From an uncultured Dehalococcoidia bacterium (GTDB lineage Bacteria; Chloroflexota; Dehalococcoidia; SZUA-161): a DNA stretch of 64,000 bases. The translations under genes and the position numbers were made by a program. Under the pieces are notes generated by a model. The model had not been told where the DNA came from and did not search any database. It saw only the letters and a list, made by a program, of their open reading frames with translations. Positions within the stretch are counted from its first letter, which is position 1. Every line of letters begins with the position of its first letter. This document shows, piece by piece, positions 34,010-62,445 of this stretch. The DNA is taken from contig CAZNOI010000004.1 in the NCBI GenBank assembly GCA_964574685.1, positions 64,930-128,929 on the forward strand. The letters are read 5' to 3'.

Positions 34010-34046
34010 TTGGATCTCACCTCAATGTATTGTTAGGGGCCTTTCC

Positions 34047-35375: not shown

Positions 35376-35420
35376 TGTTGAGATGCCTCCAGATGTATAT
35401 TGGGAAGAGTCAGAATCTGC

Positions 35421-40306: not shown

Positions 40307-41335
40307 CTAGGCTTCTACCACTTCAATGGCCTCCTGGAGCACAAGCGGTGCCTTCCAGGGGGCTTCGTCGATATCGGTGATCTCGGCCACGCGACGCAGA
40401 AAACGTCTCAGGCTTATGTTGCCGAAGTGAGCCTCGAAAGCCGGTATCCCCCCACGAGAGGATTGGTCTTCCGGGAGTAATTCGTGCGCCGCGAGCAAAT
40501 CGAGACCTCGCTCACAGACATCGGCGTTGAGGGCGCAGGTAGAATACGCGTCGGGAAAGCAGATGCGGAGGCATGTGGCGAAGGTGTGAGCCCGCTCCCA
40601 CAGAGATGGTAGTTCGCCGGACAGGTCATCCGACTGGTAGGCCTCCGGCACGTGTCTGGGCTCTAGCGCGTTCAGCAGGCGTATCATCCGGCGCGGGTTG
40701 CCATCCGAGGCCGCGAGGAGCATGTTGATGTTGGGCTTTCGGAGTTGCAGCCGTTCCAGGCAATCCGAGTACGCTCCCAGAAGTCGGCTTTGGCTGATGG
40801 GAGGCATGTCGAATTGCTTCAGTACCAGGCGGTCGAGATACTGCCTGCCATAGGCCGCGATCGCCAACATGCCGAAGAACGACGAAATGGAGTGCTCGAG
40901 GTATGCCCTGTTACCGGCAAACACCGGAACGCACCTGTCTCGTACGGCGGGCTCTGTGCATACGTCAATGGCTGCAACAAGGTCAGCGGGAAGACATTGG
41001 TCCAGCTCGTCGACAAGCAGGAAGAGGCCCTTCTCTGCCGCTGACTCCTGGACGCGCTCGATCTTGCCCTTGAAGTGCCGCCGAACAGCCTCCGAATCAG
41101 CGCGGTTGCGTGCCGCCTGATTCGCGGATATCGCAACCACTGCCGCATCCAGCGCCTGCAGTTCCTCCGCCATGAAGTTCAGGAAGCAGGTCTTGCCTGT
41201 GCCGGCCGCGCCGAATACCGCCGCCGCGAACTGCTCGTTTGGAGCCGTGGCAATGGCCTGGGCGAAGGCCCTGGCGTGCGGAGCGAAGCCGAACAGGTCT
41301 TCCGCGCACGCCCTCTTTGGCCTGTCCTGAATCAT
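40307..41335 (-). CDS. KAP-family-like P-loop NTPase (compact, no TM insert)
   Basis: N-terminal DLFGF..ARAFAQAI followed by Walker A GAAGTGKT, Walker B LLVDELD and an NPRRMIRLLN motif resembling the KAP NPR..KR..N signature. Confidence 0.6.
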   Translation of the reverse strand: MIQDRPKRACAEDLFGFAPHARAFAQAIATAPNEQFAAAVFGAAGTGKTCFLNFMAEELQALDAAVVAISANQAARNRADSEAVRRHFKGKIERVQESAAEKGLFLLVDELDQCLPADLVAAIDVCTEPAVRDRCVPVFAGNRAYLEHSISSFFGMLAIAAYGRQYLDRLVLKQFDMPPISQSRLLGAYSDCLERLQLRKPNINMLLAASDGNPRRMIRLLNALEPRHVPEAYQSDDLSGELPSLWERAHTFATCLRICFPDAYSTCALNADVCERGLDLLAAHELLPEDQSSRGGIPAFEAHFGNISLRRFLRRVAEITDIDEAPWKAPLVLQEAIEVVEA

Positions 41336-41389
41336 TGTCGACTCCTACCGGCCCGCCCGGTCGGTGCGTCAATATGCTGGAGGTAGAGG

Positions 41390-41418
41390 ATACCGAAACG
41401 CCCTGCGTTTCGCAGCGT
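41390..41418 (-). terminator. Hairpin CGCCCTGCG-N11-CGCAGGGCG downstream of the EF-G paralog, followed by TTTCGGTAT on the minus strand
   Basis: 9-bp GC stem 33 nt after the EF-G stop. Confidence 0.35.
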
Positions 41419-41450
41419 CGCAGGGCGTCAGACGTGAATCACCTCGGAGT

Positions 41451-43493
41451 TCAGGACTTGTCGCCTTCCTTCTTGGACTCCTCGACTATCTTCTGCGCCA
41501 GATGTGCCGGCACTTCCTCGTAGTGGCTGAATTCCATGCTGTAGGTCCCTCGACCCTGTGTGATCGAGCGGAGGTCCACCGAGTATTTCTGCATCTCCTC
41601 TTGAGGTACCTGCGCATCTATTGTGTTCCGGCCGTCGCCCGGGTTCATGCCCAGAACGCGGGCGCGCTTGGAATTCAGGTCACTCATGACGTCGCCGGTG
41701 TACTGCTCCGGGACTGTGATATGGACGTTCATGATGGGCTCCAAGAGTACCGGCTGAGCCTGCAGGACGCCCTTCTTCGTCGCATGTAACGCAGCGAGCT
41801 TAAAGGCCATGTCGGAGGAGTCGACCGGATGAGAACTCCCGTCGTATAGGGTCACCTTCATGTCCGTCACAGGATAGCCCGCCATCACCCCATCGTTCAG
41901 GGCCTCCATCACGCCCTTCTCGACAGCCGGGATGTAGTTCTTGGGCACCGAGCCACCCACGACCCTCTCACCGAACTCGAAGCCGCTGCCGCGGGGGAGA
42001 GGCGCCAGCTCGATGAGTACATGGCCGTACTGACCGTGGCCCCCCGTCTGCTTCTTATGCTTGTACTCCGCGTTCGTCTGGGTCTTGATCGTCTCCTTGT
42101 ACGGTATCTTTGGAGTGGCGATGGTAACGTCGACCCCGAACTTCCTCTTGAGCCTGTCCACCGACACATCGAGATGAGTGTCGCCGACTCCAGTCAGGAC
42201 TGTTTCCGACGTGACCGGGTCCTTATGAACTGACAGCGTCAGGTCCTCCTCAACCAGCCTCTGGAGCGCGGGGCCCATCTTGTCCAGGTCTCCCTTGGTC
42301 TTGGGATATACGGCCACACTCAGATTCGGCGAAGGGAACTCCAGGCCTTCGAGTATGAGTGGGTGCTCCTTCGTGCAGAGGGTGTCGCCGGTGACGGTCT
42401 CGGCGAGTTTGGCCACAGCGCCGATATCACCGGCGGGTATTTGCGGCACGGCCTCCTGGTTCTTGCCTCGGATGAGGAAGAGTTGCCCTATCCTCTCACC
42501 AGTCTCTCTGTTCGCATTCCAGACGGTCGAATCGCTGCTGAGGGTTCCGCTGTAGACGCGCAGGTACGTAAGCTTGCCCACGTACGGGTCGGCGGTGGTC
42601 TTGAAGACAAGAGTTGCGAGCGGCCCGCTCTCATCGGCTTCGAGAGCCTCCTCCTTGCCCGTCTGGGGACTCTTCGCCTCAACGGGCCCCCGTCCCCTGG
42701 GGGAGGGCAGGTACTTGCATATGGCGTCCATGACGGCTTCGATGCCCTTGGACTGCGCGACCGAACCGACGAGTACCGGCACGATGCTGCCCTGTGTGGT
42801 CCCGGCAAACAGGCCGCGCCGGATTTCGTCCTCGGTGAGTTCCTCGCCTTCGAGATACTTCGTGGTCAATTCGTCGTCGGATTCGGCTATGGCCTCCATC
42901 AGCTTGTCATAATATCCGGACACCTTGTCGGCGACACCAGCCGGCGCTTCGCCGGACGACAACAAGTCGTAAGTCCCTTCGAAGCTGCTCTCAGCCCCGA
43001 CAGGCAACTGGATCGGTACGCATTTCCTGCCGAGGACCGACTCGATCTGGCCCATCGTCTTGTAGAAGTCTGCGTTCTCCCGGTCCATTTTGTTGACGAA
43101 TACCAGGCGGGGCAGTTGCTTCTCCTCTGCGAGCTTCCAGGCGAGTTCAGTTCCGACTTCCACACCAGACGCGGCGCAAACGACAATCACCAGGCCTTCC
43201 ACGACCCGGAGAGCAGCCTTCACCTCGCCGAGGAAGTCGGCATAGCCGGGGGTGTCGATGAGGTTGACCTTGGTCTGGTTCCATTCGAACGGCAGAAGGG
43301 AGACATTGATACTGATCTTCCTCTTCACCTCGTCAGGGTCATAGTCTGAAGTGGTGTTACCGTCTTCTACGCTGCCCAGCCTGCTGATGGCCTTGGTATG
43401 GGAGAGGATCGCCTCCGATAGCGAGGTCTTTCCGGCTCCGGAGTGTGACAGCATTGCGACGTTACGTATCTGGTCGCTCGTGTACTTCTTCAT
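41451..43493 (-). CDS. fusA: Elongation factor G paralog (EF-G2-like translational GTPase)
   Basis: G1 AMLSHSGAGKTS, DTPGYADF, NKMD and all five EF-G domains. No str-operon context, which suggests the second-copy type. Confidence 0.85.
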   Translation of the reverse strand: MKKYTSDQIRNVAMLSHSGAGKTSLSEAILSHTKAISRLGSVEDGNTTSDYDPDEVKRKISINVSLLPFEWNQTKVNLIDTPGYADFLGEVKAALRVVEGLVIVVCAASGVEVGTELAWKLAEEKQLPRLVFVNKMDRENADFYKTMGQIESVLGRKCVPIQLPVGAESSFEGTYDLLSSGEAPAGVADKVSGYYDKLMEAIAESDDELTTKYLEGEELTEDEIRRGLFAGTTQGSIVPVLVGSVAQSKGIEAVMDAICKYLPSPRGRGPVEAKSPQTGKEEALEADESGPLATLVFKTTADPYVGKLTYLRVYSGTLSSDSTVWNANRETGERIGQLFLIRGKNQEAVPQIPAGDIGAVAKLAETVTGDTLCTKEHPLILEGLEFPSPNLSVAVYPKTKGDLDKMGPALQRLVEEDLTLSVHKDPVTSETVLTGVGDTHLDVSVDRLKRKFGVDVTIATPKIPYKETIKTQTNAEYKHKKQTGGHGQYGHVLIELAPLPRGSGFEFGERVVGGSVPKNYIPAVEKGVMEALNDGVMAGYPVTDMKVTLYDGSSHPVDSSDMAFKLAALHATKKGVLQAQPVLLEPIMNVHITVPEQYTGDVMSDLNSKRARVLGMNPGDGRNTIDAQVPQEEMQKYSVDLRSITQGRGTYSMEFSHYEEVPAHLAQKIVEESKKEGDKS

Positions 43494-43677
43494 AGCGTCT
43501 CCCCGGCGTGATTATCGTCCTATTCTACTTTATAAGTCCATCGGGGTGCAAGGTGAGCGCTGCTTCGGCACCAGAGGGCATCCAGGCTGTGGGCGGCTTC
43601 GCCAGGGATAGAGCGTGAGTGCGCGATACTGACTCCCATAGTCGCCACGGAGGGACTGCACCGACCCCTCGTGCTCG

Positions 43678-43707
43678 TTGACAGTAAACCATCGGGTATC
43701 CTACAAT
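43678..43707 (+). promoter_or_regulatory. Promoter TTGACA-N18-TACAAT for the CoA-transferase/mutase operon
   Basis: Near-consensus hexamers ~100 nt upstream of the ATG at 43806, with AAGGAG 8 nt before the start. Confidence 0.5.
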
Positions 43708-43805
43708 ACTTCTGTTTTGCGTGCATTCGGGCCCGCTTCTCACCTGGACCGTCTGGAGAGCACATTGCGGCTCTGGAATCCCCTATAAGGAGAGTGAGAT
43801 AGCCT

Positions 43806-45596
43806 ATGACAGGTCACACGAAGCTAGGCAAGCTGAGTGACATCGGAGAGTTCATCAAGAACGGCAGTTTCGTCGCCATCGGAGGCGGCTGGAGTTGCAA
43901 CAAGCCCATGGCCATTGTGAGGGAGATCATCAGGCAGAAGATAGCCGACCTCAAGGTGATGTCCATCACGGGCGGGTGGGAGATGGAGTGGCTGCTGGCG
44001 GCTGGCGCAGTGGATCATCTGGTCTTCAGTTTCCTGAGCCTGGAAGCATTCGGATTACCTCCCAACTTCCGGCGTGTAGCGCAGGGCAGCCTTATCAAGC
44101 TCACCGAGATCGAAGGCTGCAGCATGATCAAGGGGCTGCAGGCAGCCGGTCGCGGCCTGCCGTTCGCCGCCTTTGCCGGCCCGCGAGGGTCGGACATAGT
44201 AGCGGAGGCGCCTGACCTCTACAAAACCGTCACATGTCCCTTCACGGGGAACGAGTTGACCGCGATCCAGGCCATCGCGCCGGACGTCGCCATCATCCAT
44301 GCGCAGAAGGCAGATGAGCGGGGCAATATCGAGCTGATAGGAACCTCGGCTTCTGATCTGGATATGGCGATGGCAGCAAAGTCCGTAGTCGTAACAGTCG
44401 AGGAGATAGTCTCGGCTGATAAGATCCGTGCAGAGAAGACAGCGACGCAGGTATTCCGGCCGGAGGTATCGCTTGTCATTCCCCAGCCGCTCGGCGCAAC
44501 TCCGTGTAGCTGCGTGCCCTACTACGCGCCTCACCTCACACAGATGATGAAGGACCTCCAGGGCATCGGAAGCCCCAAGACGGCGGGCGACTACATACCG
44601 GGCCTGATTGGGAAGAGCGAAGAGGAGTACCTGAACAATGTCGGTGGAGAGGACACCAGGAAGAAGCTCGCGAGCCTGGCGAAGAACACGAAGCGTGTCA
44701 GTATGCCGGCTTCCCGGACCGAGGAGCCTGCAACCGACTTCGATCAGTCGGCACAGATGGTTGCCAGCCTCGCCCGGACTGTAGACGATGGGGACTCGAT
44801 CATACTCGGGTCTTTCACTCCGCTGGCCTACGCCGCCTACATGCTCGCGAAGCTGACGCACGCCCCCAATGCCTTCGTGGTCGGATACAGCGGCGTCGAT
44901 CCGCTGCCTTTTCAGCTTAGCTTCCATTCATCGGAGGCGGCCTGCACGGAGTTCGCGGCAGGCCTCTGGTCGATGACCGAGTGCATCGAAGCCCTTCACC
45001 TGCGAGGGATGGGCGACGTTGAGGCTGTATCCAGCGCTCAGTTGGACGCCAACGGCGACATCAACATATCATGGCTGGCAACGCCGGTGAAGGACGCGGA
45101 AGGCAATCCAACCGGTGAGATGAATCCCAGGGGACTGAGGCTGCCGGGCGGCGCCGGCGCGCCGGTCGTCTACGGCCTGCACCGCAAGAGTGTTGCTTAC
45201 TTCGCGGCACACTCGAAGCAGGTCTTCGTTCCAAAGGTCAACTACATAACCGGCACACGCTACTACTTCACCGACGAGGAGAGGAAGGCACAGGGACTGC
45301 GGCCCGGGCCGATGACAGTCGTGACCAATCTCTGCGTCATGCAGATGGTTGAGCGAGGGAAGTGGAAGGTGCTCTCGCTGCACAGGGGCGCAACCGCGGA
45401 CGACGTCAGGAACAATACAGGCTTCGAAGTGGACGTGCCCGCGGACTGCCCGACCACGAAGCCTCCCACGAAACAGGAGCTGGAGCTGATCGAGCTGATA
45501 GACCCGCAGGGCATCAGGTTCCTGGACTTCATGAGCGGCAAAGAGCGGGCCGGCAAGCTTCCTTCAATCATACAGGCCGAGTGGGACGCGGCCTAG
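43806..45596 (+). CDS. Family I CoA-transferase with fused A and B subunits (glutaconate CoA-transferase GctA/GctB-like)
   Basis: 596 aa whose N-half resembles GctA (KLGKLSDIGEFIKNGSFVAIGG) and whose C-half resembles GctB. Confidence 0.8.
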   Translation: MTGHTKLGKLSDIGEFIKNGSFVAIGGGWSCNKPMAIVREIIRQKIADLKVMSITGGWEMEWLLAAGAVDHLVFSFLSLEAFGLPPNFRRVAQGSLIKLTEIEGCSMIKGLQAAGRGLPFAAFAGPRGSDIVAEAPDLYKTVTCPFTGNELTAIQAIAPDVAIIHAQKADERGNIELIGTSASDLDMAMAAKSVVVTVEEIVSADKIRAEKTATQVFRPEVSLVIPQPLGATPCSCVPYYAPHLTQMMKDLQGIGSPKTAGDYIPGLIGKSEEEYLNNVGGEDTRKKLASLAKNTKRVSMPASRTEEPATDFDQSAQMVASLARTVDDGDSIILGSFTPLAYAAYMLAKLTHAPNAFVVGYSGVDPLPFQLSFHSSEAACTEFAAGLWSMTECIEALHLRGMGDVEAVSSAQLDANGDINISWLATPVKDAEGNPTGEMNPRGLRLPGGAGAPVVYGLHRKSVAYFAAHSKQVFVPKVNYITGTRYYFTDEERKAQGLRPGPMTVVTNLCVMQMVERGKWKVLSLHRGATADDVRNNTGFEVDVPADCPTTKPPTKQELELIELIDPQGIRFLDFMSGKERAGKLPSIIQAEWDAA

Positions 45597-45633
45597 CGGC
45601 CTGCAATCGATAGAACCTCATTGAGGAGGCACT

Positions 45634-46428
45634 ATGGCATACAAGGTCTTCAAGGTAGAGAAGAAGGAAGGCAATATCGCTGTAATCACTTTCAATCGCC
45701 CGGACAAGTTCAATGCGGCCAATGACCAGATATTCAGAGAGCTGGCGGCGGCAGTAGAGGAGTTGGATGCCGACAAGGAAGTCGGCTGCATAATTCTGAC
45801 CGGGCAGACGTTCACACATCCCAAGAAGGGCACACCATACCCGGTGTTCTCAGCGGGTGCTGATGTGGAACAGTTCGCGGCGGTGGGCCAGACCGAGGCA
45901 GGCTTCGAGTTCATCAAGCTATGCTTCATGCCCTTCAAGGCGATTGAGCTCGCCGAGACGCCCATCATAGCGGCGGTTAACGGTTCGGCGTTCGGCTTCG
46001 GTTTCGAGATCGCCGGGTGCTGCGATATGTCGTTTGCATCCAGGAGCGCGAAGTTCGCGCTGAAGGAGATCAATCACGGTGCGGTGCCCGCCTGGACGAT
46101 TACCCGGGGGCTGGAGAAGTACGGAAAGGCCGTTGTGGCCTATCTCTGCCTATCGGCGAATGAGATAGAGCCCGAGGAAGCGAAACGCCTCGGCATCGTG
46201 ATAGACGTGTATGAGGATGCCGAGCTCCTTCCCAAGTGTGAAGAACTCGCCAGGAGGATCGCTGCAAACAGCTACATGGCCAAGACGTTCATCAAGACCA
46301 CGCTCAACCGGCGTGCCATCGAGGAATACCAGGATGCCGAGCGATTCATGCCCTCCGTCTTCGCAACGCAGTTCATGCAGGGGGCTTTCGCACGGTTCCT
46401 GAAGGGCGATACGCGAGGCAAGCAGTAA
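45634..46428 (+). CDS. Enoyl-CoA hydratase/isomerase (crotonase) family protein
   Basis: ITFNRPDKFNA... oxyanion-hole region with both catalytic Glu positions present. Confidence 0.85.
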   Translation: MAYKVFKVEKKEGNIAVITFNRPDKFNAANDQIFRELAAAVEELDADKEVGCIILTGQTFTHPKKGTPYPVFSAGADVEQFAAVGQTEAGFEFIKLCFMPFKAIELAETPIIAAVNGSAFGFGFEIAGCCDMSFASRSAKFALKEINHGAVPAWTITRGLEKYGKAVVAYLCLSANEIEPEEAKRLGIVIDVYEDAELLPKCEELARRIAANSYMAKTFIKTTLNRRAIEEYQDAERFMPSVFATQFMQGAFARFLKGDTRGKQ

Positions 46429-46487
46429 AAAGCCCCGTCCTTCTGTGAGTGCGCCGCTGCCTGGAAGGCTACTAAGGAGGAGACTGA

Positions 46488-48194
46488 ATGTTCGACGACA
46501 AGACCGTGGAAGCATGCCGGAAGATGATGGAGAAGCACGATGAGCTAATCCAGACCCGCTATCAGGGCAAGGATTTCTCTTCTGCTACCGGATCATCAGA
46601 GATACCTGTGAAGCCTTTCTATACCCCTGCCGACATCGAAGACGTCGATTTCGAGAAGGACATCGGGCTTCCAGGACAGTATCCGTATACTCGAAGCAAC
46701 TACCCCATCCACTATCAGTTCCAGCCCTGGATAAACCAGCCGGTTCACGGCTACGGGCTACCGGAGCACACCCGTGAGAGGATGGACATGCTGGCGAAGG
46801 CCGGTATGGAGGGCTACTTCGGTGGCAGGGCATACAACCTTGTCTGGGACGTGCCAACCTACTTCGGCGTCGATCCCGACGAGCCGGATGCTCAGGGCTA
46901 CCAGGGAAAGGACGGGGTCTGTTGCGTTACCGATGAGGACTTCGGGCGGATGCTCCATGACATCGACCTTTCCAAGACCAACATAGTGCTCATCAACGGC
47001 GATACACTGCCCATTCTAGCCCACTACATCGCCTACGCGGAGAGCCAGGGGGTGCCTCGCGACCAGCTTCGCGGCAACACCATGAACTGGGAGTTCACTG
47101 CGTGGTACGCACCCAACTTCCTCTGGGAGACGGAGGGGGCGCTGAAGCTCGCGACGGACTTGATTCACTTCTGCAGCAACGAGATGCCGAAGTGGAACCA
47201 CACGAACATCCAGGGGCACGGAATCTCGGAGACTGGGGCCGATGCAGTTCACCAGATGGCCTACTCGATAGCCTGTGCGCGCGCTGTGGCCGATTCCTGT
47301 GTGAAGGCGGGCATTGAGCCGGACGCATTCCTGCCTGGCATAGGGTTCCAGATTGCCCAGGGCAACGATTTCTTCGAGTACATCTGCATGTTCCGAGCCT
47401 GGCGAAAGCTCTGGGCCACGGTATGCCGCGAGCGGTTCGGGGCGAAGAAGCCGTCGTCTATGCAACTCAGGACGCACACTCATACGTCATGCTTCGAGCT
47501 GACGAAGCAGCAACCACTCGTCAATCTGATTCGGAGCGCCTACCATGCCCTCGGTGCTGCGCTTTCCGGGACGACCGCGATGGAGATTCCGGGGTACGAT
47601 GAGCCCATCGGCATCCCGACGGAGGAGTCCGCTGTGCTCGCTCTTCGGATCCAGCAGGTGCTCCGGCACGAGACGGGTATAACCAAGGTCGGCGACCCGC
47701 TGGCCGGGTCCTACTATGTGGAGTGGCTGACCAAGAGGATGGAGGAAGAGGGCGCGGCGATACTGAAGGAGATTGACGATGCCGGCGGATTCGTCAAGGC
47801 GCACAAGAGCGGTATGCTCATCAGCAACCTCCGCAAGAGGGCGAACGAGTGGCGGAAGAAGGTGGACAGCGGCGAGCTGACCATCGTCGGCTGGAACAAG
47901 TACATCGTGGAGGAGGAAGAGCCTATCCAGGCTTTCAAGCCGGACCCGGAGGTGGGCAGGATTGCGGCCGAGCGCATCAAAGAGTACAGGGCAAGACGAG
48001 ACCAGGCCAAGACGGACGCTGCGTTGAACGCTCTGGTGGCCGCAGCCGAGAAGCTGGACAAAGGCGAGTACGGGAACGTGATGCCCGCATGTGTCGAGGC
48101 TGCCAAGGCAAAGGCGACGGCCGGTGAGATCTCGAAGGCACTGCGCAAGGTGTTCAAGTGGGGGCCCGAGTACAGCGTCTCGCTGCCGCACTAG
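46488..48194 (+). CDS. B12-dependent acyl-CoA mutase large (substrate-binding) subunit, split HcmA/IcmA type
   Basis: 568-aa methylmalonyl-CoA-mutase-like TIM-barrel domain lacking its own B12 domain. The sizes match the split IcmA/HcmA + IcmB/HcmB architecture. Confidence 0.85.
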   Translation: MFDDKTVEACRKMMEKHDELIQTRYQGKDFSSATGSSEIPVKPFYTPADIEDVDFEKDIGLPGQYPYTRSNYPIHYQFQPWINQPVHGYGLPEHTRERMDMLAKAGMEGYFGGRAYNLVWDVPTYFGVDPDEPDAQGYQGKDGVCCVTDEDFGRMLHDIDLSKTNIVLINGDTLPILAHYIAYAESQGVPRDQLRGNTMNWEFTAWYAPNFLWETEGALKLATDLIHFCSNEMPKWNHTNIQGHGISETGADAVHQMAYSIACARAVADSCVKAGIEPDAFLPGIGFQIAQGNDFFEYICMFRAWRKLWATVCRERFGAKKPSSMQLRTHTHTSCFELTKQQPLVNLIRSAYHALGAALSGTTAMEIPGYDEPIGIPTEESAVLALRIQQVLRHETGITKVGDPLAGSYYVEWLTKRMEEEGAAILKEIDDAGGFVKAHKSGMLISNLRKRANEWRKKVDSGELTIVGWNKYIVEEEEPIQAFKPDPEVGRIAAERIKEYRARRDQAKTDAALNALVAAAEKLDKGEYGNVMPACVEAAKAKATAGEISKALRKVFKWGPEYSVSLPH

Positions 48195-48232
48195 GCCCGG
48201 CCCAATCCGAGCTACTTAGGAGGTAATGACAA

Positions 48233-48631
48233 TTGAGTTCGAACGACAAGCCCAAGGTATTGCTCGTCAAGCACTGGATGGAGATTCACGATCGGGGCGT
48301 GAAGAGCGTCGTCGCGAGGTTGAGGGACGCCGGCTTCGAGGTCATATACATGGTGTACATGCGCCCCGAGGAAATCGTGGCCGCCGCACAGCAGGAGGAC
48401 GCCAAGGTCATCGGAATGAGCTTCTCCACGGGAGCGTATGATGCTCACGTGCCCGAGGTAATGCGTCTGCTGAAGGAAAAGGGCATGGGCGACGTGACCG
48501 TAGTGCTGGGCGGCCTGATTCCCGACGAGGATGTGCCTAGTCTGAAGGCACAGGGAGTCAAGGAGGTCTTCGGAGCCGGCTCAAACCTTGACGAGTTGAT
48601 CGATCTTCTGAGCGCGATTCCGGCGGGCTAG
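48233..48631 (+). CDS. Acyl-CoA mutase small subunit, B12-binding domain
   Basis: 132 aa with a ...EIHDRG... variant of the DxHxxG cobalamin His-ligand motif and a Rossmann-like fold. Confidence 0.8.
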   Translation: MSSNDKPKVLLVKHWMEIHDRGVKSVVARLRDAGFEVIYMVYMRPEEIVAAAQQEDAKVIGMSFSTGAYDAHVPEVMRLLKEKGMGDVTVVLGGLIPDEDVPSLKAQGVKEVFGAGSNLDELIDLLSAIPAG

Positions 48632-48676
48632 AGCCATCGCTTGTGGCTCAGGCCCAATCCATATAGGGAGGAGAAC

Positions 48677-49477
48677 ATGCACCACTACGAGACCATCCTT
48701 TTCGAGAAGAGCGATGGTGTTGGCAAGATCACCTTCAACCGTCCCGACAAGCTCAACGCCTTCAATCCTCAGATGTCTCAGGAATTGAGAGACTGTGTCC
48801 GGCAGGTCGCCGGAGACGCAGAGGTCAGAGTGCTCATACTGACCGGGTCCGGCGACAGGGCGTTCATGGCAGGTGCCGATATCGACAAGACGATTCTGGC
48901 ATGGGTGGAGATGACCCGAAAGGGCGGCAGGGTCCTGGATGATCACCGGGAGTTCTTCTCCCCGACTATGCTGGAGGACCTGCCCCAGCCGGTCATCGGA
49001 GCCATCAATGGAATCGCCTTCGGGATGGGCTGTGAGATAGCCCTGGGTTGCGACGTCAGGATCGCTTCGGAGGCGGCCCAGTTCGGCCAGCCTGAGATCA
49101 AGCTCGGTATCATGTGCGGCGGAGGCGGCAGTGTCAGGCTCACCCGGCTGGTCGGCAAGGGCAAGGCAATGGAGATGTGCCTGACAGGTGACCCCATCGA
49201 TGCTCAGGAGGCTTACCGCGTCGGCTTGGCCAACCAGGTGGTTCCGGCTGCCGAGCTCGAGAATGCCGTGGCTGCGATGGTGAAGAAGCTGATGGCCAAG
49301 GGTGCTGTGGCTGTGGACTACACGAAGCGGTCAGTCAACGGGGCCATGAATATGGGCCTTCACGACGCGATAGAGAATGAAGCCAGACTCTTCTCCGAGG
49401 TATTCAGGACTGAGGATGCCCTGGAAGGAGCCAACGCATTCCTGGAGAAGAGAAAGCCCAACTTCCAGCACAAGTAG
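48677..49477 (+). CDS. Enoyl-CoA hydratase/isomerase (crotonase) family protein
   Basis: ITFNRPDKLNAF and GAINGIAFGMGCEIAL motifs. ATG at 48677 preceded by AGGGAGGAG. Confidence 0.85.
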   Translation: MHHYETILFEKSDGVGKITFNRPDKLNAFNPQMSQELRDCVRQVAGDAEVRVLILTGSGDRAFMAGADIDKTILAWVEMTRKGGRVLDDHREFFSPTMLEDLPQPVIGAINGIAFGMGCEIALGCDVRIASEAAQFGQPEIKLGIMCGGGGSVRLTRLVGKGKAMEMCLTGDPIDAQEAYRVGLANQVVPAAELENAVAAMVKKLMAKGAVAVDYTKRSVNGAMNMGLHDAIENEARLFSEVFRTEDALEGANAFLEKRKPNFQHK

Positions 49478-49506
49478 TGTCAGGACGAGCTGAAGCATTA
49501 GGAGAA

Positions 49507-49534
49507 GGGGCCTCGACGAGGCCCCTTCTCGTTT
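49507..49534. terminator. Bidirectional intrinsic terminator GGGGCCTC-gac-GAGGCCCC + TTCTCGTTT between convergent operons
   Basis: GC hairpin flanked by T-tract on the plus strand and A-rich/GAGAA on the other side; lies between the crotonase stop and the abfD-like stop. Confidence 0.55.
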
Positions 49535-49554
49535 GACGCGGAACTGGTTCCAGG

Positions 49555-51063
49555 CTAGGCGCAGCGGAAGTCCTTGAAGTACTCGTCCTCGGTCTTGCCG
49601 GTTATGCCCTCGAAGTGCCTGTCTTCCTTGATCCCTACTATGGTCTCGGCTATTTCCTTCTTCTTGTCGAGGGCGGCGCGCCGGCCGATCATCATCTTCT
49701 GAGCCTGGGGCGACCCCGCTCCGTGGAGGGCCTCGGGGAGGCCGGCTCCCACGGCCATGTTCTCAATGAGTCGCACCATGTGTATCCTGTCTCGCGTCGC
49801 GCTGCCTTCTTTGCCGCAGAAGTACTTCTCGATGTATGGGCCGACTTCCGGGTTCATGCAGTCTTTCTCCGACGGCAGAGTAATGAGCAGGCCCCCGGCG
49901 ATGTCTTGAGCCAGACGCATCCACTCATAGGTGTTTCGGGTAATGTTCAGCTTGACGACGTTCGCCAGAAGGGGGCTGATCGTATAGGCTCCGGAATTCG
50001 TCTTGGTACCCTCGTAAGAGCACGCCAGCGAGCATGACCAGCAGGTCTCAGCCATGCCGACCATCTCGGCCAGCAGGTCGCGTATGTAGGGGGCCTTCTC
50101 AATGCCGTTGTTCTCGGCTACCCAGTAAGCGGCCCCCGTCACGACGTCGGCAAGGCCGACCTTGCATCCACCGTAGTTGCTGCGGTGGAAGCCCGCAAAG
50201 GTCTCTACGAGTTGGCCGGTGAAATCGTACTCGCCACACATGAACACCCGGTCCCAGGGCACGAAGACGTTGTCGAATATGATCAATGTCTCCCCGCCGA
50301 CTATACCGTACTTCGCATTCCCGCAGTCGATCTCGCCGTCAAGCCGACGGGTATCGTTCGTCTGGCGGCCGAACACAAGGGTGACGCCCTCGGCATCTAC
50401 CGGGACGGCGAAGCATACGGAGTAGTCCTTGTCCTCTTCGCCCATTGTTCTCGTCGGCATTGCCAGTATCTCGTGCGAATTCACAGTCCCGGTGATATGG
50501 GCCTTGGCGCCCCGCACAACGATCCCGTCGTCTCTTCGCTCCACTACGTGAACGTATACGTCGGGGTCCGGCTGCTGGTGGGGCCGCAGGCTGCGGTCTC
50601 CCTTGGGGTCCGACATGGCGCCTGCCAGCATGAGATCGTTGTCCTGTACGTACTTCAGGTAGTTCTTGAAGCGCTGGTGATAGTCCGTGCCGTGCTTCTT
50701 GTCCATGTCATAGGTGGTGATGTAGACGGCGTTTAGCCCGTCCAGTCCCACACATCGTTGGAAGCACGTGCCTGTCTTCTGGCCGAGCAGCCTCATCATC
50801 CTGACCTTGTTCACCAGGTCGTCGATGCTGTGATGTATGTGGGTGAACCTGTTCACCTTCTCTCCGGTGAGGCTCGAAGTAGCAGTCATGGTCTCGGTGT
50901 GCTCAGGGTCGTTTGCCAGCTCGTAGGTCATGGCCGCCGCGTTGATATGCGGCTGGAACAGGGGATAGTCGACAACGTTCTCCACCAGTTCACCGAAGGC
51001 GTAGACCTTCGGGTGGAGCTTTCGGAGACTCTCAATGTACTCTTTGCCCGAGTTGATTCCCAT
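49555..51063 (-). CDS. 4-hydroxybutyryl-CoA dehydratase / vinylacetyl-CoA delta-isomerase (AbfD-type, HpaB fold)
   Basis: 502 aa. Cys100/Cys104 (CFQRC) and His293/Cys300 (HRSNYGGC) align with the C99/C103/H292/C299 [4Fe-4S] ligands of characterised AbfD. Confidence 0.8.
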   Translation of the reverse strand: MGINSGKEYIESLRKLHPKVYAFGELVENVVDYPLFQPHINAAAMTYELANDPEHTETMTATSSLTGEKVNRFTHIHHSIDDLVNKVRMMRLLGQKTGTCFQRCVGLDGLNAVYITTYDMDKKHGTDYHQRFKNYLKYVQDNDLMLAGAMSDPKGDRSLRPHQQPDPDVYVHVVERRDDGIVVRGAKAHITGTVNSHEILAMPTRTMGEEDKDYSVCFAVPVDAEGVTLVFGRQTNDTRRLDGEIDCGNAKYGIVGGETLIIFDNVFVPWDRVFMCGEYDFTGQLVETFAGFHRSNYGGCKVGLADVVTGAAYWVAENNGIEKAPYIRDLLAEMVGMAETCWSCSLACSYEGTKTNSGAYTISPLLANVVKLNITRNTYEWMRLAQDIAGGLLITLPSEKDCMNPEVGPYIEKYFCGKEGSATRDRIHMVRLIENMAVGAGLPEALHGAGSPQAQKMMIGRRAALDKKKEIAETIVGIKEDRHFEGITGKTEDEYFKDFRCA

Positions 51064-51128
51064 TCCGTCTTCCTGCCTTTCCAGCTCCCCCGCCGATTTC
51101 CGTTTGGCCCCAAGCCCTTACACGGGGC

Positions 51129-51989
51129 CTACTTCTTAGTATAGTCGTAGAAGCCCTTTCCTGTCTTGCGCCCCAGATGCCCGGCTCTTACCATCTGCCG
51201 CAGAAGCAGGGCGGGCCGATACTTGGGATCCCCATATTCCTCGTAGAGGTGCTCCATGCAGTAGAGGAGCGTATCCAGCCCCACGAAGTCGGCAAGCTCG
51301 AGTGGCCCCATCGGATGGTTCATGCCCAGTCTCATGCCCTTGTCGATATCCTCTGCGCTTGCGATGCCCTCAGCGAAGGCGCATATCGCCTCGTTCTGAA
51401 GCACCCCTATAAGTCTCGTCGTAGCGAACCCGGGGGTGTCATCAACCACGATAGCTTCTTTCGCCATTTTGGAGGAAACGGACCGGATCACATCGATCGT
51501 ATCCTGTGATGTACTGTAGCCACGCACGATCTCAACCAGAGGCATCATCGGCACGGGATTGAAGAAATGCATGCCTGCGAACCTGTCCGGACGACTCGTG
51601 CACGAGGCCATCTGCGTGATGCTGAGCCCGGAGGTGTTAGAAGCGAAAATCACGCTCTCCGGGCAGACTTTGTCGATTGCCTCGTAGGTCTGCTTCTTGA
51701 GATCGAAACTCTCCGGTATCGCTTCGATCACCAGGTCTACGTCCTTGACAGCCTCGGCCAGGTCTGTCGTCGCCTTGATCCTGGCGACCGCAGCATCGGC
51801 ATCAGCCTGGCCCATCTTTTCCTTCTTGACGAAACGCGCCAGGCTCTGCTTGATGGTGTCCATGCCCTTCTCGACGAACTTGTCCTCAATGTCGCGCATT
51901 CGCACTTCCAGGCCTACCTGTCCGGCGACCTGCGCGATTCCCGCCCCCATGATGCCGGCCCCGAGGACCCCGACTCGCTTCACCTCCAT
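51129..51989 (-). CDS. hbd: 3-hydroxybutyryl-CoA dehydrogenase
   Basis: NAD Rossmann motif [14 protein letters not shown] and a 3-hydroxyacyl-CoA dehydrogenase C-domain. Confidence 0.9.
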
Positions 51990-52031
51990 GCTACAAGGAC
52001 CTCCTCGAATATGAATTCCACGAATACCGCA

Positions 52032-52784
52032 TCAGACGGCCATCCAGCCGCCATCGACGAATATCGTCTGACCGGTAATGAAGTTCGAGTCGCTTGAAGC
52101 GAGGAAGACCGCTGCACCGACTATCTCCTCCGGCTGTGCGAACCTCTTCATCGGGTTCATGTTCTTCAGGCTCTCGTAGATTCGCTCGTTGTCGCGTAGT
52201 CCGGTGGTGAACTCCGTCTCGACGTAAGACGGGCCGATGCCGTTCACCTGGATATTGTGTTCGGCCCACTCGGCAGCCAGCACCTTCGTGACCAGAACGA
52301 TACCCCCCTTGCTGGCACAGTAGGCGACCAGTCTGGGCAGGGCCACTTCACCGCCGACGGAGGTCATGTTGATGATCTTGCCGCTCTTCTGCTGGATCAT
52401 GACTCGTCCGGCAGCCTGGCAGCACAGAAAGGTCCCGGTGAGGTTCGTCCGCATGATCTGGTCCCACGTCTCCAGCGGCGTGTCCTCGGCCCTCTTGTAG
52501 ATCGGACTGATGCCCGCGTTGTTGACGAGTATGTCGATGCGCCCGAATCGCGCAACCACTTCGTCGAACACCTGGGCTATGCTGTCACCATCAGCGACAT
52601 CGAGCCGCATTGCCAGTGCCTTCTTGCCCTGGTTGGTCAGTTCCTCGGCAAGGGCATTCGCGAGGTCGACCGACCGTCCGCATACCACGACGGTTGCCCC
52701 CTCGTTCGCGTAACCTTCGGCGATGGCTCTCCCGATCCCTTTTGTGGAACCGGTAACGACGGCTATCTTGTCCTTGAGTCTCAC
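52032..52784 (-). CDS. Short-chain dehydrogenase/reductase (FabG-like 3-oxoacyl reductase)
   Basis: TGSTKGIGRA coenzyme-binding motif, NNAG and the YxxxK catalytic motif. Confidence 0.85.
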   Translation of the reverse strand: MRLKDKIAVVTGSTKGIGRAIAEGYANEGATVVVCGRSVDLANALAEELTNQGKKALAMRLDVADGDSIAQVFDEVVARFGRIDILVNNAGISPIYKRAEDTPLETWDQIMRTNLTGTFLCCQAAGRVMIQQKSGKIINMTSVGGEVALPRLVAYCASKGGIVLVTKVLAAEWAEHNIQVNGIGPSYVETEFTTGLRDNERIYESLKNMNPMKRFAQPEEIVGAAVFLASSDSNFITGQTIFVDGGWMAV

Positions 52785-52898
52785 TGGCGGCCCCCTCCCA
52801 GTGTGGAGCGTTCCTCTATGAGTGGCAGATGGAGAACAAGTTGCATTCGTGTGGCTAGTCAGTAGCAGGCAGTACGTTCAGTCGCTGTCGCTCGGAAC

Positions 52899-52974
<76 letters not shown>

Positions 52975-53068
52975 TCGCGGTGTATCTTACTACATCGGAG
53001 TTGACCAATCAACACGCAGCGGCAGTCAGTACGCGCACGCAACCGCAATACCCTGCTGTTCCCTAATG

Positions 53069-53098
53069 TTGACACTCCAGACTGGCCTACGATATACT
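53069..53098 (+). promoter_or_regulatory. Promoter TTGACA-N18-TATACT for the 2-hydroxyacid dehydrogenase-POR-ligase-dehydratase-ACAD operon
   Basis: Consensus -35 and a strong -10, ~160 nt upstream of the ATG at 53256. Confidence 0.5.
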
Positions 53099-53131
53099 AT
53101 CCTGCGAGAATGACCAGCTCATGCGGCCATA

Positions 53132-53173
53132 AATGCGGGTAGGCTTCGTCCAAAACAGGACGCTACCCGCATT
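53132..53173. promoter_or_regulatory. Perfect 11-bp inverted repeat AATGCGGGTAG-N20-CTACCCGCATT in the leader of the 53-64 kb operon
   Basis: Read directly from the sequence, lying between the predicted promoter and the start codon. Confidence 0.55.
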
Positions 53174-53255
53174 CTGATGTCCGAAGGCTATCCGCAAGGC
53201 GCTGACACCACGGGAACCCGATTTCCGCCCAGGCGTCCGCATGGAAGGGGGTGTC

Positions 53256-54242
53256 ATGGAAAAGCGAGATCACTACCGGATACTCATCACGGACCCGCTG
53301 GTGAACCGGATGGTGGAGGAGGCGAAGCAGAAGTTCCCAGAGGAAAGCAAGAAGGTGGAGTTTCTGCTGGTGGACAAAGGAGACGAGCAGGAGCTGGCAG
53401 GGAAGGTTACCGGAGTTGACATCCTTGTGGGGGCCAGGAATCGGATGTCCCGCGCCGTACTGGAGAAAGCCGACCGGGCAATCTTCATCCAGCAGTGCAG
53501 CGCAGGCTATGATAACATAGATATGAAGGCAGCGACCGAGAAGGGCATCAAGGTGTCCAATGCCGGCGGTGCGGGTGTCATACCGGTTGCCGAGCATACC
53601 ATCATGTTGATGCTGGCTGTCTCGAAGAACCTGCCCAGAGCGCACAACACTATGAAGCAGGGCGAGTGGATATTCGGGGAGTGTGTGGGCAAGGTCTATG
53701 AACTGCGTGACAAAACACTGGGCGTGGTGGGACTCGGCAAGATAGGCGCACAGGTGGCGCGCCTCGCGCATGCCTTCGGCATGAAGCTGCAGTACTTTGA
53801 CCCCTATCGGAAGGAAACCAGCGATCTGGAGTTCCCGATAGCCAGTGTATCGCTGGACGAGCTGCTGAAGACCTCGGACTACGTCACCATACACTCGCTT
53901 CTCACTCCCGAGACCAGGGGCATGATCGGAAGGAAGCAACTCGAGATGATGAAGGAGACCGCATACCTCATCAACACGTCGAGGGGCGCGGTAGTGGACG
54001 AGGAAGCTCTGGCCGAGATACTGGCGGCAGGGAAGATAAGGGGCGCCGGGCTGGATGTGTTCGGCGACCATGGAGACCCGCCGGACAAGTCAAGCGGGCT
54101 GCTCAAGTTGGACAACGTGGTACTGACACCCCACGTAGGTGGTGTGACCGCAGAGGACATCTACCGCAACTTCTACGTGACGTCCCTGGGAAACATAATG
54201 TCCGTTGTCAGGGGCGAAGAACCCAAGTACGTTTTGAACTGA
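53256..54242 (+). CDS. D-isomer-specific 2-hydroxyacid dehydrogenase (NAD-dependent; PGDH/HicDH/FldH-like)
   Basis: NAD motif VGLGKIGAQVARLA and the catalytic R...E...H triad region (LTPHVGG). ATG at 53256 preceded by GGAAGGGGG. Confidence 0.85.
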   Translation: MEKRDHYRILITDPLVNRMVEEAKQKFPEESKKVEFLLVDKGDEQELAGKVTGVDILVGARNRMSRAVLEKADRAIFIQQCSAGYDNIDMKAATEKGIKVSNAGGAGVIPVAEHTIMLMLAVSKNLPRAHNTMKQGEWIFGECVGKVYELRDKTLGVVGLGKIGAQVARLAHAFGMKLQYFDPYRKETSDLEFPIASVSLDELLKTSDYVTIHSLLTPETRGMIGRKQLEMMKETAYLINTSRGAVVDEEALAEILAAGKIRGAGLDVFGDHGDPPDKSSGLLKLDNVVLTPHVGGVTAEDIYRNFYVTSLGNIMSVVRGEEPKYVLN

Positions 54243-54304
54243 GGACTCGGGACCGGCCCGACGGGTCAGTGTCTACTACCGCTTTGATGTAAGGTGCTTG
54301 GACT

Positions 54305-54844
54305 ATGGTCAAGATAAGGGTACACGGCAGAGGAGGGGAGGGCGCTGTCACCTTTGCCCACATTTTGGCAGCGTCGGCCACCTATGACGGAAAGTGGGGC
54401 CAGTCCTGCATGGGGGCGGCGGTCGAGAGGCGGGGGGCGCCGGTGGAGGCATATGCAAGGATTGACGGCCGCAGGGTCGCGGAACGCGGGACCATTACCA
54501 GGCCCGACATCGTCGTGGTGCTGAATCCATCTCTGGCGGGCACGGTGAACCTTGAGGCCGGCATGAACGATAAGGGCGAGCTGGTGGTGAATTCGCCAAA
54601 GGGGCTGGACCTGAAGCACCCTGCCAGGTACGTTGACGCCACATCGATTGCCAGACAGATACTGAAAGTCCCCATCACCAATACGGTGATGCTGGGCGCA
54701 TTCGCGGCGGCAACCGGACTCGTCACTCTGGAATCGCTGGAGAAAGGCGCTCGGCTGTTGCTTGCGCCTCGCTTTAGTGAAGACAAGCTGCAGCGCAACT
54801 TCGAGGCGATCAGAGCGGGATACGAAGGAGTCAAGGGTGGCTAA
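54305..54844 (+). CDS. 2-oxoacid:ferredoxin oxidoreductase gamma subunit
   Basis: PorG-like sequence with the GRGGEGAVTFAHILA motif. Confidence 0.85.
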   Translation: MVKIRVHGRGGEGAVTFAHILAASATYDGKWGQSCMGAAVERRGAPVEAYARIDGRRVAERGTITRPDIVVVLNPSLAGTVNLEAGMNDKGELVVNSPKGLDLKHPARYVDATSIARQILKVPITNTVMLGAFAAATGLVTLESLEKGARLLLAPRFSEDKLQRNFEAIRAGYEGVKGG

Positions 54845-55133
54845 GACATATATCAGAGGCTCGGGTATCCACGCCGGTGGCACCATAGCGCTGGTCAACA
54901 AGACCGGGACCTGGCGCATCTACGATCCCGTCGTAGACCAGGAGAAGTGCATCGGCTGCAAGATATGCTCGCAGTTCTGTCCTGATGACTGCATCAGGAG
55001 GCTGGGGGTTGACAAGTCGGCTCCGGCGGGAACACCGCGCATCGAGATCGACATGGTTTACTGCAAGGGGTGCGGCATATGTGCCCAGGAGTGCCCCAAG
55101 GGCGCTATTCAGATGGTGTTGTGTGAGGCCTAA
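54837..55133 (+). CDS. 2-oxoacid:ferredoxin oxidoreductase delta subunit (2x[4Fe-4S] ferredoxin)
   Basis: CIGCKICSQFCP and CKGCGICAQECP clusters. The GTG start overlaps the porG stop, and GAAGGAG lies 7 nt upstream. Confidence 0.8.
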   Translation: MAKTYIRGSGIHAGGTIALVNKTGTWRIYDPVVDQEKCIGCKICSQFCPDDCIRRLGVDKSAPAGTPRIEIDMVYCKGCGICAQECPKGAIQMVLCEA

Positions 55134-55135
55134 CT

Positions 55136-57214: not shown

Positions 57215-57223
57215 GGGGAGAGC

Positions 57224-58864: not shown

Positions 58865-58866
58865 AC

Positions 58867-59967: not shown

Positions 59968-59974
59968 CGACTTC

Positions 59975-61228: not shown

Positions 61229-61260
61229 TCGGCGTCCAAACATACAAGGAGGACAGGATA

Positions 61261-62382: not shown

Positions 62383-62445
62383 CACTACTTGATCAAGTGA
62401 AGTCCCAGTGATAGCTGGATTTGGAGAAGGCAAATGTCCCACAGT

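Follow-up and report, generated by a model that had tools for sequence, protein, structure and literature searches.

The window analysed here is a 64,000-nucleotide stretch of DNA from an uncultured Dehalococcoidia bacterium (contig CAZNOI010000004.1), and its central feature is a set of eight genes, arranged in two operons, around a two-subunit adenosylcobalamin (AdoCbl)-dependent acyl-CoA mutase. Residue alignment and tree place this mutase in a large and so far uncharacterised superclade whose active site is rebuilt, within the AdoCbl acyl-CoA mutase superfamily, and its genes belong to a cluster, conserved across three phyla, that probably reshapes a small branched acyl-CoA. The eight genes are:

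43806-45596, plus strand: glutaconate CoA-transferase (GCT)-family protein, 596 aa, matching Pfam CoA_trans in two stretches
45634-46428, plus strand: crotonase ECH1, 264 aa, matching ECH_1
46488-48194, plus strand: mutase large (substrate-binding) subunit MutL, 568 aa, matching MM_CoA_mutase (PF01642, E = 7.5e-145)
48233-48631, plus strand: B12-binding subunit MutS, 132 aa, matching the B12-binding family and TIGR00640 (110 bits, cutoff 57)
48641-49477, plus strand: crotonase ECH2, 278 aa, matching ECH_1, the true start probably being the ATG at 48677
49555-51063, minus strand: 4-hydroxybutyryl-CoA dehydratase homologue AbfD, 502 aa, matching HpaB_N/HpaB, E = 1.4e-175 to C. aminobutyricum AbfD (1u8v)
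51129-51989, minus strand: Hbd-type 3-hydroxybutyryl-CoA dehydrogenase, 286 aa, matching 3HCDH
52032-52784, minus strand: short-chain dehydrogenase/reductase (SDR), 250 aa, with a match to that family

The open reading frames lie where an earlier note on this DNA had placed them, with the families and sizes it gave, and Pfam and NCBIfam profiles make the family assignments unambiguous (Pfam E from 4e-18 to 7.5e-145). The plus-strand operon runs GCT-ECH1-MutL-MutS-ECH2 with gaps of 9-59 bp, and the minus-strand operon runs SDR-Hbd-AbfD with a tRNA-Ala gene upstream; since the former ends at 49477 and the latter at 49555, the two converge, and are not divergent as the earlier note had described them.

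We find that MutL passes the domain-level model TIGR00641 (440 bits, cutoff 304), and that its closest solved relatives are HcmA of 2-hydroxyisobutyryl-CoA mutase (HCM; E = 3.2e-97) and human methylmalonyl-CoA mutase (MCM; E = 1.3e-89). Over 560 trimmed columns its identity is 36% with HcmA, 34% with human MCM and 32% with P. shermanii MutB, whereas that between HcmA and the MCMs is 42%; IcmF, of the isobutyryl-CoA mutase (ICM) family, aligns with MutL over residues 212-480 only. The MCM residues that bind the carboxylate of the substrate are Tyr89 and Arg207, with His244 in contact with its thioester carbonyl; the specificity residues of HcmA are Ile90, Asp117, which binds the substrate hydroxyl, and Gln208; and the ICM signature is Phe80 and Gln198 at the MCM Tyr89/Arg207 positions, with MCM-like spacing. 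The MCM and HcmA positions were mapped on solved chains, those of HcmA on 4r3u_A, and the His244 column was marked by the 1e1c chain (GYAMQEAG) against wild-type MCM (GYHMQEAG). The corresponding residues of the window MutL are:

MCM Tyr89 / HCM Ile90 / ICM Phe80 position: Val
HCM Asp117 position: Val
MCM Gln197 position: Met
MCM Arg207 / HCM Gln208 / ICM Gln198 position: Pro
MCM Tyr243-His244 positions: His-Gly

A 6-residue insertion (GYFGGRAY) lies between the Tyr89 and Arg207 columns, and the known-family motifs GTxQxDILKE and LxFFxxxxxxFFEE give way to GNTMNW and GFQIAQxNDFFE, which, with NQPVHGYGLPE and HTHTS, are the rebuilt motifs of MutL. None of the characterised families matches this pattern. 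The MCM columns hold Val, Pro and Gly, and the MCM equivalog NF006944 scores 372 bits against a cutoff of 876; the ICM signature columns hold Val and Pro, with the ICM residues taken from general knowledge rather than from an aligned ICM sequence, and the IcmF model NF045497 scores 160 bits against a cutoff of 1500; and the HcmA columns hold Val, Val and Pro, of which the Ile90-to-Val change alone is conservative. A neighbour-joining tree puts the MutL superclade on a long branch as sister to HcmA, outside MCM and the other characterised families. Canonical MCM, ICM or HCM membership is thus ruled out by residue alignment and tree, so that the label HcmAB/IcmAB-like, which the earlier note had used, is not supported, while its separation of the protein from MCM stands; its argument from subunit sizes for HCM or ICM over MCM is weak, given that split MCMs also exist. 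No cationic residue is found at any aligned first-shell position of MutL, and, because the carboxylate-binding Tyr89 and Arg207 of MCM are replaced by Val and Pro, this pattern argues for an uncharged acyl group in the substrate.

MutS retains the B12-ligating His on alignment, in the motif E17-I-H19-D-R-G22, where the Asp of DxHxxG is Glu. This His is invariant in at least 60 relatives; type A proteins have Glu where those of type B retain the Asp, types A and B being two kinds of cassette that are described below. The architecture of MutL is common to all of its best 120 database matches, with matches of 59-100% identity forming a tight clade and those of about 45-50% a second tier. More distant relatives of the type found at locus L064 (39% identity) have the same architecture, and a search from one of them returns 6931 proteins at E <= 1e-50; public sources label these mutases "methylmalonyl-CoA mutase N-terminal domain/subunit". 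In the literature available for full-text search we found no account of the mutase clade or of the gene cluster.

Species-representative genomes were scanned by profile for the tight-clade mutase, which is almost confined to Dehalococcoidia and other Chloroflexota metagenome-assembled genomes (MAGs), with single matches in Syntrophorhabdus, Desulfovirgula and Desulfobacteraceae MAGs; the closest relative of the window, at 86% identity, is in an uncultured Chloroflexia MAG. Many MAGs carry two paralogous cassettes. Type A consists of a fused GCT gene followed by ECH1, MutL and MutS, divergent from an AMP-forming ligase and a Bcd/AcrC-like acyl-CoA dehydrogenase (ACAD), and the window holds a subtype of it with an added ECH2. 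Type B runs OYE-type flavoprotein, amine-oxidase-like flavoprotein, GCT-A, GCT-B, ECH1, MutL, MutS and ECH2, and converges on AbfD, Hbd and SDR, with a thiolase complex upstream. Two further window genes are probable partners of the cassette:

57224-58864, plus strand: AMP-forming acyl-CoA ligase, with orthologues beside type A cassettes
61261-62382, plus strand: short-chain ACAD1 (AcrC/Bcd-like), with orthologues beside type A cassettes

Orthologues of the ligase (70-76%) lie divergent beside type A cassettes in Dehalococcoidia MAGs (L010-L016; also L001, L002 and L043), and in L010-L012 and L014-L016 they are adjoined by orthologues of the ACAD (71-80%). Upstream DNA exceeds 3.5 kb in 27 tight-clade loci, and a GCT gene is present in 23 of these; of the four that lack it, three belong to a subclade whose Tyr89 position is Thr. 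Downstream DNA exceeds 4 kb in 21 tight-clade loci, of which 9, all type B and A', have AbfD within 9 kb of the mutase. Some type A cassettes (L008, L009, L016) have no ECH1, the GCT gene being followed directly by the mutase, so that the GCT-mutase pair can evidently dispense with ECH1. Downstream of type A cassettes in Dehalococcoidia MAGs (L008, L011, L012, L014, L015) we also observe a third, more divergent mutase pair (31-34% identity), which converges on the cassette and carries RRQITGCS, INVICDQPT and a long insertion in place of MCM GTIQNDILKE.

Outside the Chloroflexota the same genes are found in other arrangements. Desulfosarcina and Desulfuromonadales MAGs carry a single co-directional operon that starts ECH, ACAD, MeaB, MutL, MutS, ECH, SDR and continues with GCT (72% to the window protein), ECH1 (80%), thiolase and/or Hbd, then ACAD and Hbd; L064 alone among these has an AMP-ligase and an AbfD homologue (53%) before the ACAD and Hbd. 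At L004 a single strand holds GCT-A, GCT-B, ECH, MutL, MutS, an AbfD paralogue, SDR, MaoC, SDR and ACAD behind a TRAP transporter, the AbfD paralogue and SDR thus directly following MutS. In the cultured actinomycetes Sphaerisporangium sp. NBC_01403 (L066) and Acrocarpospora macrocephala, MeaB-MutL-MutS-SDR is divergent from ECH-GCT-A-GCT-B-SDR. MeaB genes stand beside mutase relatives in L005, L024, L032 and L062-L067. In each phylum an SDR gene neighbours either the mutase or the GCT gene. Taken together, these arrangements leave a core present in all phyla: ECH, a GCT-family protein without its catalytic Glu, an SDR, and the mutase accompanied by another SDR. The window SDR is 42% identical to SDRa of L064 and 37% to SDR1 of L066, and on this similarity is taken as the counterpart of the SDR that adjoins the GCT gene in other phyla. 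That the eight genes belong together, as the earlier note had proposed, is borne out by the recurrence of the set beside mutase relatives in many Chloroflexota MAGs and in the Desulfosarcina/Desulfuromonadales operons.

One upstream neighbour of type B cassettes scores barely above the NCBIfam cutoff for HMG-CoA synthase (244.5, cutoff 244). This protein has a PhlA-like condensing domain with Lys at the catalytic Cys and is fused to DUF35; it is paired with an SCPx-type thiolase and is found upstream of type B in L017, L019-L021, L023 and L025, and also in L039 and L054. It is probably, on domain content and residues, part of a thiolase complex and not an HMG-CoA synthase, and a route through HMG-CoA (3-hydroxy-3-methylglutaryl-CoA), 3-methylglutaconyl-CoA and 3-methylcrotonyl-CoA, as in AIB, loses its support. 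Type B cassettes are headed by a flavoprotein 29% identical to a 667-aa OYE/FadH-type Fe-S flavoprotein that is encoded, with EtfB and EtfA, at 19895-24052 (minus strand) of the window.

The protein at 43806-45596 is a fusion of the GCT alpha and beta domains, with AibA/AibB (5mzw), GctAB (1poi) and IpdAB (6co6) as its closest solved relatives, and it is 70-84% identical across Chloroflexota, Thermodesulfobacteriota and Desulfuromonadales. In AibAB, the 3-methylglutaconyl-CoA decarboxylase of Myxococcus xanthus, AibB Cys56 stands in place of the transferase catalytic Glu (PMC7756340). We located this column by PDB variants at that site; its Gct equivalent is beta-Glu54, and it holds Gly360 in the window protein and Ala or Gly in split type B and actinomycete homologues, while the equivalent of AibB Glu72, E376, is kept in types A and B. 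Because the catalytic Glu is missing, the protein is probably not a CoA-transferase; family I membership was rejected on the absence of the nucleophile, and the "fused CoA-transferase" of the earlier note is to be read accordingly. The resemblance to AibAB thus lies in a GCT fold with the catalytic Glu replaced and Glu72(B) kept, and the adjacent crotonase gene mirrors the LiuC/AibAB logic; unlike AibAB, the window subunits are fused and have Gly instead of Cys56, and the supposed HMG-CoA synthase beside type B cassettes is the PhlA-like protein without catalytic Cys described above. The ring-opening hydrolase IpdAB of M. tuberculosis, which is accompanied by EchA20, is likewise a Glu-less member of the family, with SDR and ACAD partners, and the order ECH, GCT-A, GCT-B matches the echA20-ipdA-ipdB order of M. 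tuberculosis. However, IpdA Glu105, located by comparison of 6co6 with 6coj (Ala in the latter), aligns with Gly in the window protein, type B having Thr-Gly at the two positions, and no steroid-catabolic context is seen, so that an IpdAB-like hydrolase was rejected on the loss of Glu105. We conclude that the protein acts on a CoA ester non-covalently, and it could be a decarboxylase, a lyase of the retro-aldol or retro-Claisen kind, or an epimerase; its residues point less to a transferase than to an AibAB-like enzyme cleaving a C-C bond via a thioester enolate.

The remaining enzymes are better conserved at their active sites. The two catalytic Glu of crotonases (rat ECH Glu144 and Glu164) are present both in ECH1 (GFGFE125, LKE144I), which has a 9-residue insertion and C. 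acetobutylicum Crt (5z7r) and 3-hydroxypropionyl-CoA dehydratase (5zai) as closest solved relatives, and in ECH2 (GMGCE132, QPE152I), which scores 252 bits with the short-chain enoyl-CoA hydratase model NF004475; ECH1 shares 80% identity with the ECH next after the GCT gene at the Desulfosarcina locus L064. AbfD, which also matches 6vjr (E = 1.2e-159), has the four [4Fe-4S] ligands C100, C104, H293 and C300 that the earlier note had named, equivalent to reference Cys99, Cys103, His292 and Cys299, and keeps the residues aligned with Tyr296, Lys300, Glu257, Glu455 and Thr190. It appears from these residues to be a true C4 4-hydroxybutyryl-CoA dehydratase/vinylacetyl-CoA isomerase and an orthologue of the enzyme of the C. 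aminobutyricum 4-aminobutyrate/4-hydroxybutyrate pathway. Hbd scores 398 bits with NF004474, slightly below the cutoff of 408. With the AbfD active-site residues and the two Glu of both crotonases kept, the C4 acyl-CoA hub centred on crotonyl-CoA that was proposed earlier is a reasonable idea.

The Sphaerisporangium locus L066 holds the core (MeaB, a mutase of the same superclade, Glu-less GCT-A/B, ECHs, SDRs and Hbd) and no AbfD, an enzyme that is an oxygen-sensitive radical catalyst. In its place are a kinase and an ACAD that match the kinase domain (E = 1.4e-53) and the ACAD domain (E = 1.5e-61) of ACAD11; in Acrocarpospora a kinase homologue lies about 9 kb away from the cluster. ACAD10/11 turn 4-hydroxyacyl-CoA into 2-enoyl-CoA via 4-phosphorylation (bioRxiv 10.1101/2024.01.09.574893), and the actinomycete cluster resembles ACAD10/11 or Lva-type 4-hydroxy-acid catabolism in this respect, although neither these pathways nor the AbfD pathway has a B12 mutase or a GCT-like protein. 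The presence of two unrelated systems, AbfD in an anaerobe and an ACAD11-like pair in an aerobe, beside the same core suggests that a 4-hydroxyacyl-CoA is a pathway intermediate, an argument that comes mainly from one actinomycete locus. A VOC-family (methylmalonyl-CoA-epimerase-type) gene in L066 fits a substrate with a 2-methyl stereocentre.

From synteny and alignment we infer a substrate, a direction of flux and a role for the GCT-like protein, and tentatively favour a reading that is possible but short of probable, in which the mutase linearises an uncharged, oxygenated 2-methyl acyl-CoA, the prototype being 3-hydroxyisobutyryl-CoA to 4-hydroxybutyryl-CoA, with AbfD, crotonase and Hbd leading on to acetoacetyl-CoA. 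The module would convert a short methyl-branched, uncharged acyl-CoA into the crotonyl-CoA/acetoacetyl-CoA pool, the two-subunit AdoCbl mutase transferring the CoA-thioester group from C2 onto the adjacent methyl of a substrate with an oxygen function at C3, which amounts to an MCM-type shift with CH2OH or carbonyl replacing the carboxylate. In such a scheme ECH1 would hydrate methacrylyl-CoA to 3-hydroxyisobutyryl-CoA; the mutase would convert this to 4-hydroxybutyryl-CoA, or a 3-oxo to a 4-oxo form with SDRs acting on either side; AbfD would dehydrate 4-hydroxybutyryl-CoA to crotonyl-CoA; ECH2 would hydrate crotonyl-CoA to 3-hydroxybutyryl-CoA; and Hbd would oxidise the latter to acetoacetyl-CoA. 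We propose a 3-oxygenated substrate because of the uncharged pocket, the universal SDRs, the upstream hydratase, the downstream 4-hydroxyacyl-CoA dehydrating system and the short-chain types of crotonase, Hbd and ACAD. A C4 chain length would fit the presence in AbfD of the catalytic residues of the C4 enzyme, the short-chain crotonases ECH1 and ECH2, and the AcrC/Bcd-like ACAD1. The nearest experimentally studied cluster, the mutase-MeaB-SDR cluster of D. biacutus/D. cetonica, acts on a hydroxyacyl-CoA (PMC7888143).

Several observations weigh against this proposal. The GCT-like protein accompanies the mutase more constantly than any other partner, yet the scheme can do without it. Hydrophobic residues prevail at the aligned pocket positions (Val, Val, Met, Pro, Trp), and none is an obvious contact for a hydroxyl. 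Contrary to what one would naively expect, AbfD is found near the mutase in the Val subclade and not in the subclade that has Thr at the Tyr89 position. Type A loci, L065, L067 and several type B loci lack AbfD, and at L064, where its gene overlaps that of the AMP-ligase, the enzyme could serve as a separate point of entry for free 4-hydroxy acids. The proposed reaction has no known biochemical precedent, and none of the papers searched names a 3-hydroxyisobutyryl-CoA or 4-hydroxybutyryl-CoA mutase.

In its relation to HcmAB of Aquincola tertiaricarbonis (4r3u), the window mutase shares the two-subunit AdoCbl design of about 565 + 135 aa and a small hydrophobic residue at the Ile90 position, Val for Ile being a conservative change, and HcmA is both its best solved relative and its nearest neighbour in the tree. 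An HCM/RCM-like enzyme would interconvert 2-hydroxyisobutyryl-CoA, or a homologous 2-hydroxy-2-methylacyl-CoA, and 3-hydroxybutyryl-CoA, from which SDR/Hbd would give acetoacetyl-CoA, as in the acetone pathway of D. biacutus. The context goes some way with this: SDR and MeaB adjoin the mutase in relatives of the window, as in the D. biacutus/Desulfosarcina cetonica cluster, the order MeaB-MutL-MutS-SDR of L066/L067 resembling the induced SDR-MeaB-mutase cluster (PMC7888143); at L063 the mutase is followed by Hbd, with thiolase adjoining; and 2-hydroxyacyl-CoA dehydratase genes, which could make 2-hydroxyisobutyryl-CoA from methacrylyl-CoA, lie near the mutase in the window, L001/L002, L032 and L033. 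We nevertheless judge it unlikely, as the identity to HcmA is low, Asp117 and Gln208 are replaced by Val and Pro, His244 by Gly, the insertion and rebuilt motifs are foreign to HcmA, the linkage to AbfD or the ACAD11-like pair is left unexplained, and none of the loci has a TDP (thiamine diphosphate)-dependent acetone-activating enzyme or 2-hydroxyisobutyryl-CoA lyase. The hydrophobic aligned pocket would suit an ICM- or pivalyl-CoA mutase (PCM)-like enzyme, turning isobutyryl-CoA into butyryl-CoA or pivalyl-CoA into isovaleryl-CoA ahead of ACAD, crotonases and Hbd, and to this we give a similarly low chance. Relatives at L006 and L062 are accompanied only by ACAD, ECH, Hbd, MeaB and Liv-type transporters, type A cassettes adjoin the AMP-ligase and Bcd/AcrC-like ACAD, the duplicate ACAD, ECH, Hbd and thiolase of L064/L065 suit two rounds of beta-oxidation around an isomerisation, and the window has a VOR-type 2-oxoacid:ferredoxin oxidoreductase (OFOR), a Had-like dehydratase and a branched-chain aminotransferase. 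AibAB, the nearest characterised GCT-like relative, binds a 3-methyl-branched C5 acyl-CoA, and ECH1 with the GCT-like protein might form a hydratase-lyase pair on 3-methylcrotonyl-CoA, a lyase role that is speculative. The signature Phe80 and Gln198 are nonetheless Val and Pro here, and the constant SDRs and the AbfD or ACAD11-like pair would be left without a role.

A dicarboxylyl-CoA mutase would find a place for the whole type A set (ligase, mutase, ACAD, GCT-like, ECH1 and Hbd) in one linear pathway, for example from 2-methylsuccinyl-CoA to glutaryl-CoA, then by ACAD to glutaconyl-CoA and by the GCT-like protein, as a soluble decarboxylase of AibAB type, to crotonyl-CoA, with crotonase and Hbd to finish. 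The GCT-like protein is closest to AibAB and glutaconate CoA-transferase, which bind glutaconyl-type CoA esters; an HGD-type dehydratase and a D-2-hydroxyacid dehydrogenase lie nearby, as in hydroxyglutarate operons; and the mutase-plus-decarboxylase logic is that of the E. coli sbm operon (scpA-argK-scpB-scpC), which likewise combines a mutase with crotonase-family and CoA-transferase-family enzymes and, as in relatives of the window, a MeaB-type chaperone. Unlike the sbm enzymes, however, the window crotonases keep the hydratase Glu, the transferase-like protein has no nucleophile and the mutase has no carboxylate site: no Arg or Lys occupies an aligned first-shell position, and the conserved Arg/Lys of the 6-residue insertion would, from the alignment, lie before the N-terminal end of the strand and point toward the CoA entry side. 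With AbfD and the ACAD11-like pair again unexplained, we hold this route to be quite improbable. As for an ordinary split MCM of propionate/succinate metabolism that merely lies near C4 genes, the public annotation name and the TIGR00641 score speak for it, and the window mutase shares with MCM (1req, 2xij) and with IcmAB/IcmF the Pfam domain, a B12 partner with the His ligand and a presumed 1,2-shift of the CoA-thioester. Tyr89, Arg207, Gln197 and His244 are all replaced, though, as are Phe80/Gln198 of ICM, and the insertion, the equivalog score far below cutoff, an identity of 32-34% and the absence of an epimerase or carboxyltransferase gene from the window effectively exclude it.

Returning to the 3-hydroxyisobutyryl-CoA proposal, its strongest form would combine four things: the first natural mutase interconverting 2-methyl-3-hydroxy(oxo)acyl-CoA and 4-hydroxy(oxo)acyl-CoA; a very large superclade that lacks His244, Tyr89 and Arg207; a partner that is a new kind of non-transferase GCT-family enzyme; and conversion of valine-type skeletons to two acetyl-CoA without carboxylase or hydrolase, used from subsurface Chloroflexota to soil actinomycetes. 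That all of this holds jointly we consider rather doubtful. If it did, a 3-hydroxyisobutyryl-CoA/4-hydroxybutyryl-CoA mutase would explain the anaerobic disposal of valine-type skeletons and would be of interest for methacrylate and butanediol chemistry. To our knowledge few acyl-CoA mutase specificities have been described (MCM, ICM/IcmF, ethylmalonyl-CoA mutase (ECM), HCM/RCM and PCM), and each new one has so far been valuable for metabolism and engineering. The present clade departs from the known mutases at every specificity-predicting residue and at the catalytic His, and a GCT partner without the catalytic Glu would give a third function to a fold that is best known for CoA transfer. Thousands of database proteins fall in the clade, almost all annotated as methylmalonyl-CoA mutase, so that at these genes the current annotation of how Chloroflexota, Desulfobacterota and some actinomycetes handle propionate and B12 is probably mistaken. 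As close relatives of the whole cluster occur in cultured, genetically tractable actinomycetes, the question is directly testable.

Two features flank the operons:

43678-43707, plus strand: candidate promoter-like site TTGACA-18-TACAAT, matching the consensus at 11/12, about 100 bp 5' of the first cassette gene
52899-52974, minus strand: tRNA-Ala (GGC), between the SDR-Hbd-AbfD operon and a 2-hydroxyacid operon

The start at 43678 given in the earlier note is the first base of this promoter-like site and not a start codon. A search for a B12 riboswitch or other RNA upstream detects the tRNA alone in 41000-56000. In agreement with that note, tblastn with three MeaB proteins finds no MeaB in the 64-kb window; the sole P-loop candidate, a 342-aa open reading frame at 40307-41335 (minus strand), is KAP/QatA-like and was rejected. 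This ATPase gene adjoins several small open reading frames without family matches and may be defence-related.

Further genes of the window accompany the mutase elsewhere. Behind a promoter-like site at 53069-53098, an operon at 53241-63700 (plus strand) encodes a D-2-hydroxyacid dehydrogenase, a POR-gamma-sized open reading frame, a fused PorA-PorB-type 2-oxoacid:ferredoxin oxidoreductase, the AMP-ligase, a HadB/HadC-like 2-hydroxyacyl-CoA dehydratase pair without an activator gene, the AcrC-like ACAD and a PimC-like ACAD, and its genes recur divergent from the cassette in L001 and L002. At 32354-36548 (minus strand), two BcrAD-type ATPases and two HGD-D proteins resemble Bzd-type class I benzoyl-CoA reductase, with the BzdN model at 394 bits against a cutoff of 454; similar sets are immediate neighbours of the tight-clade mutase genes of Syntrophorhabdus (L032) and Desulfovirgula (L033). 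At L062 a PFL-like glycyl-radical enzyme (821 aa; 1-546, minus strand), accompanied by an IclR regulator, lies about 9 kb from a second-tier mutase and MeaB, a hint that some superclade members serve fumarate-addition (alkylsuccinate) pathways. A second cobalamin-dependent enzyme of the window, a B12-binding radical SAM protein of the TIGR03960 family (757 bits), is encoded at 7538-9430 (plus strand).

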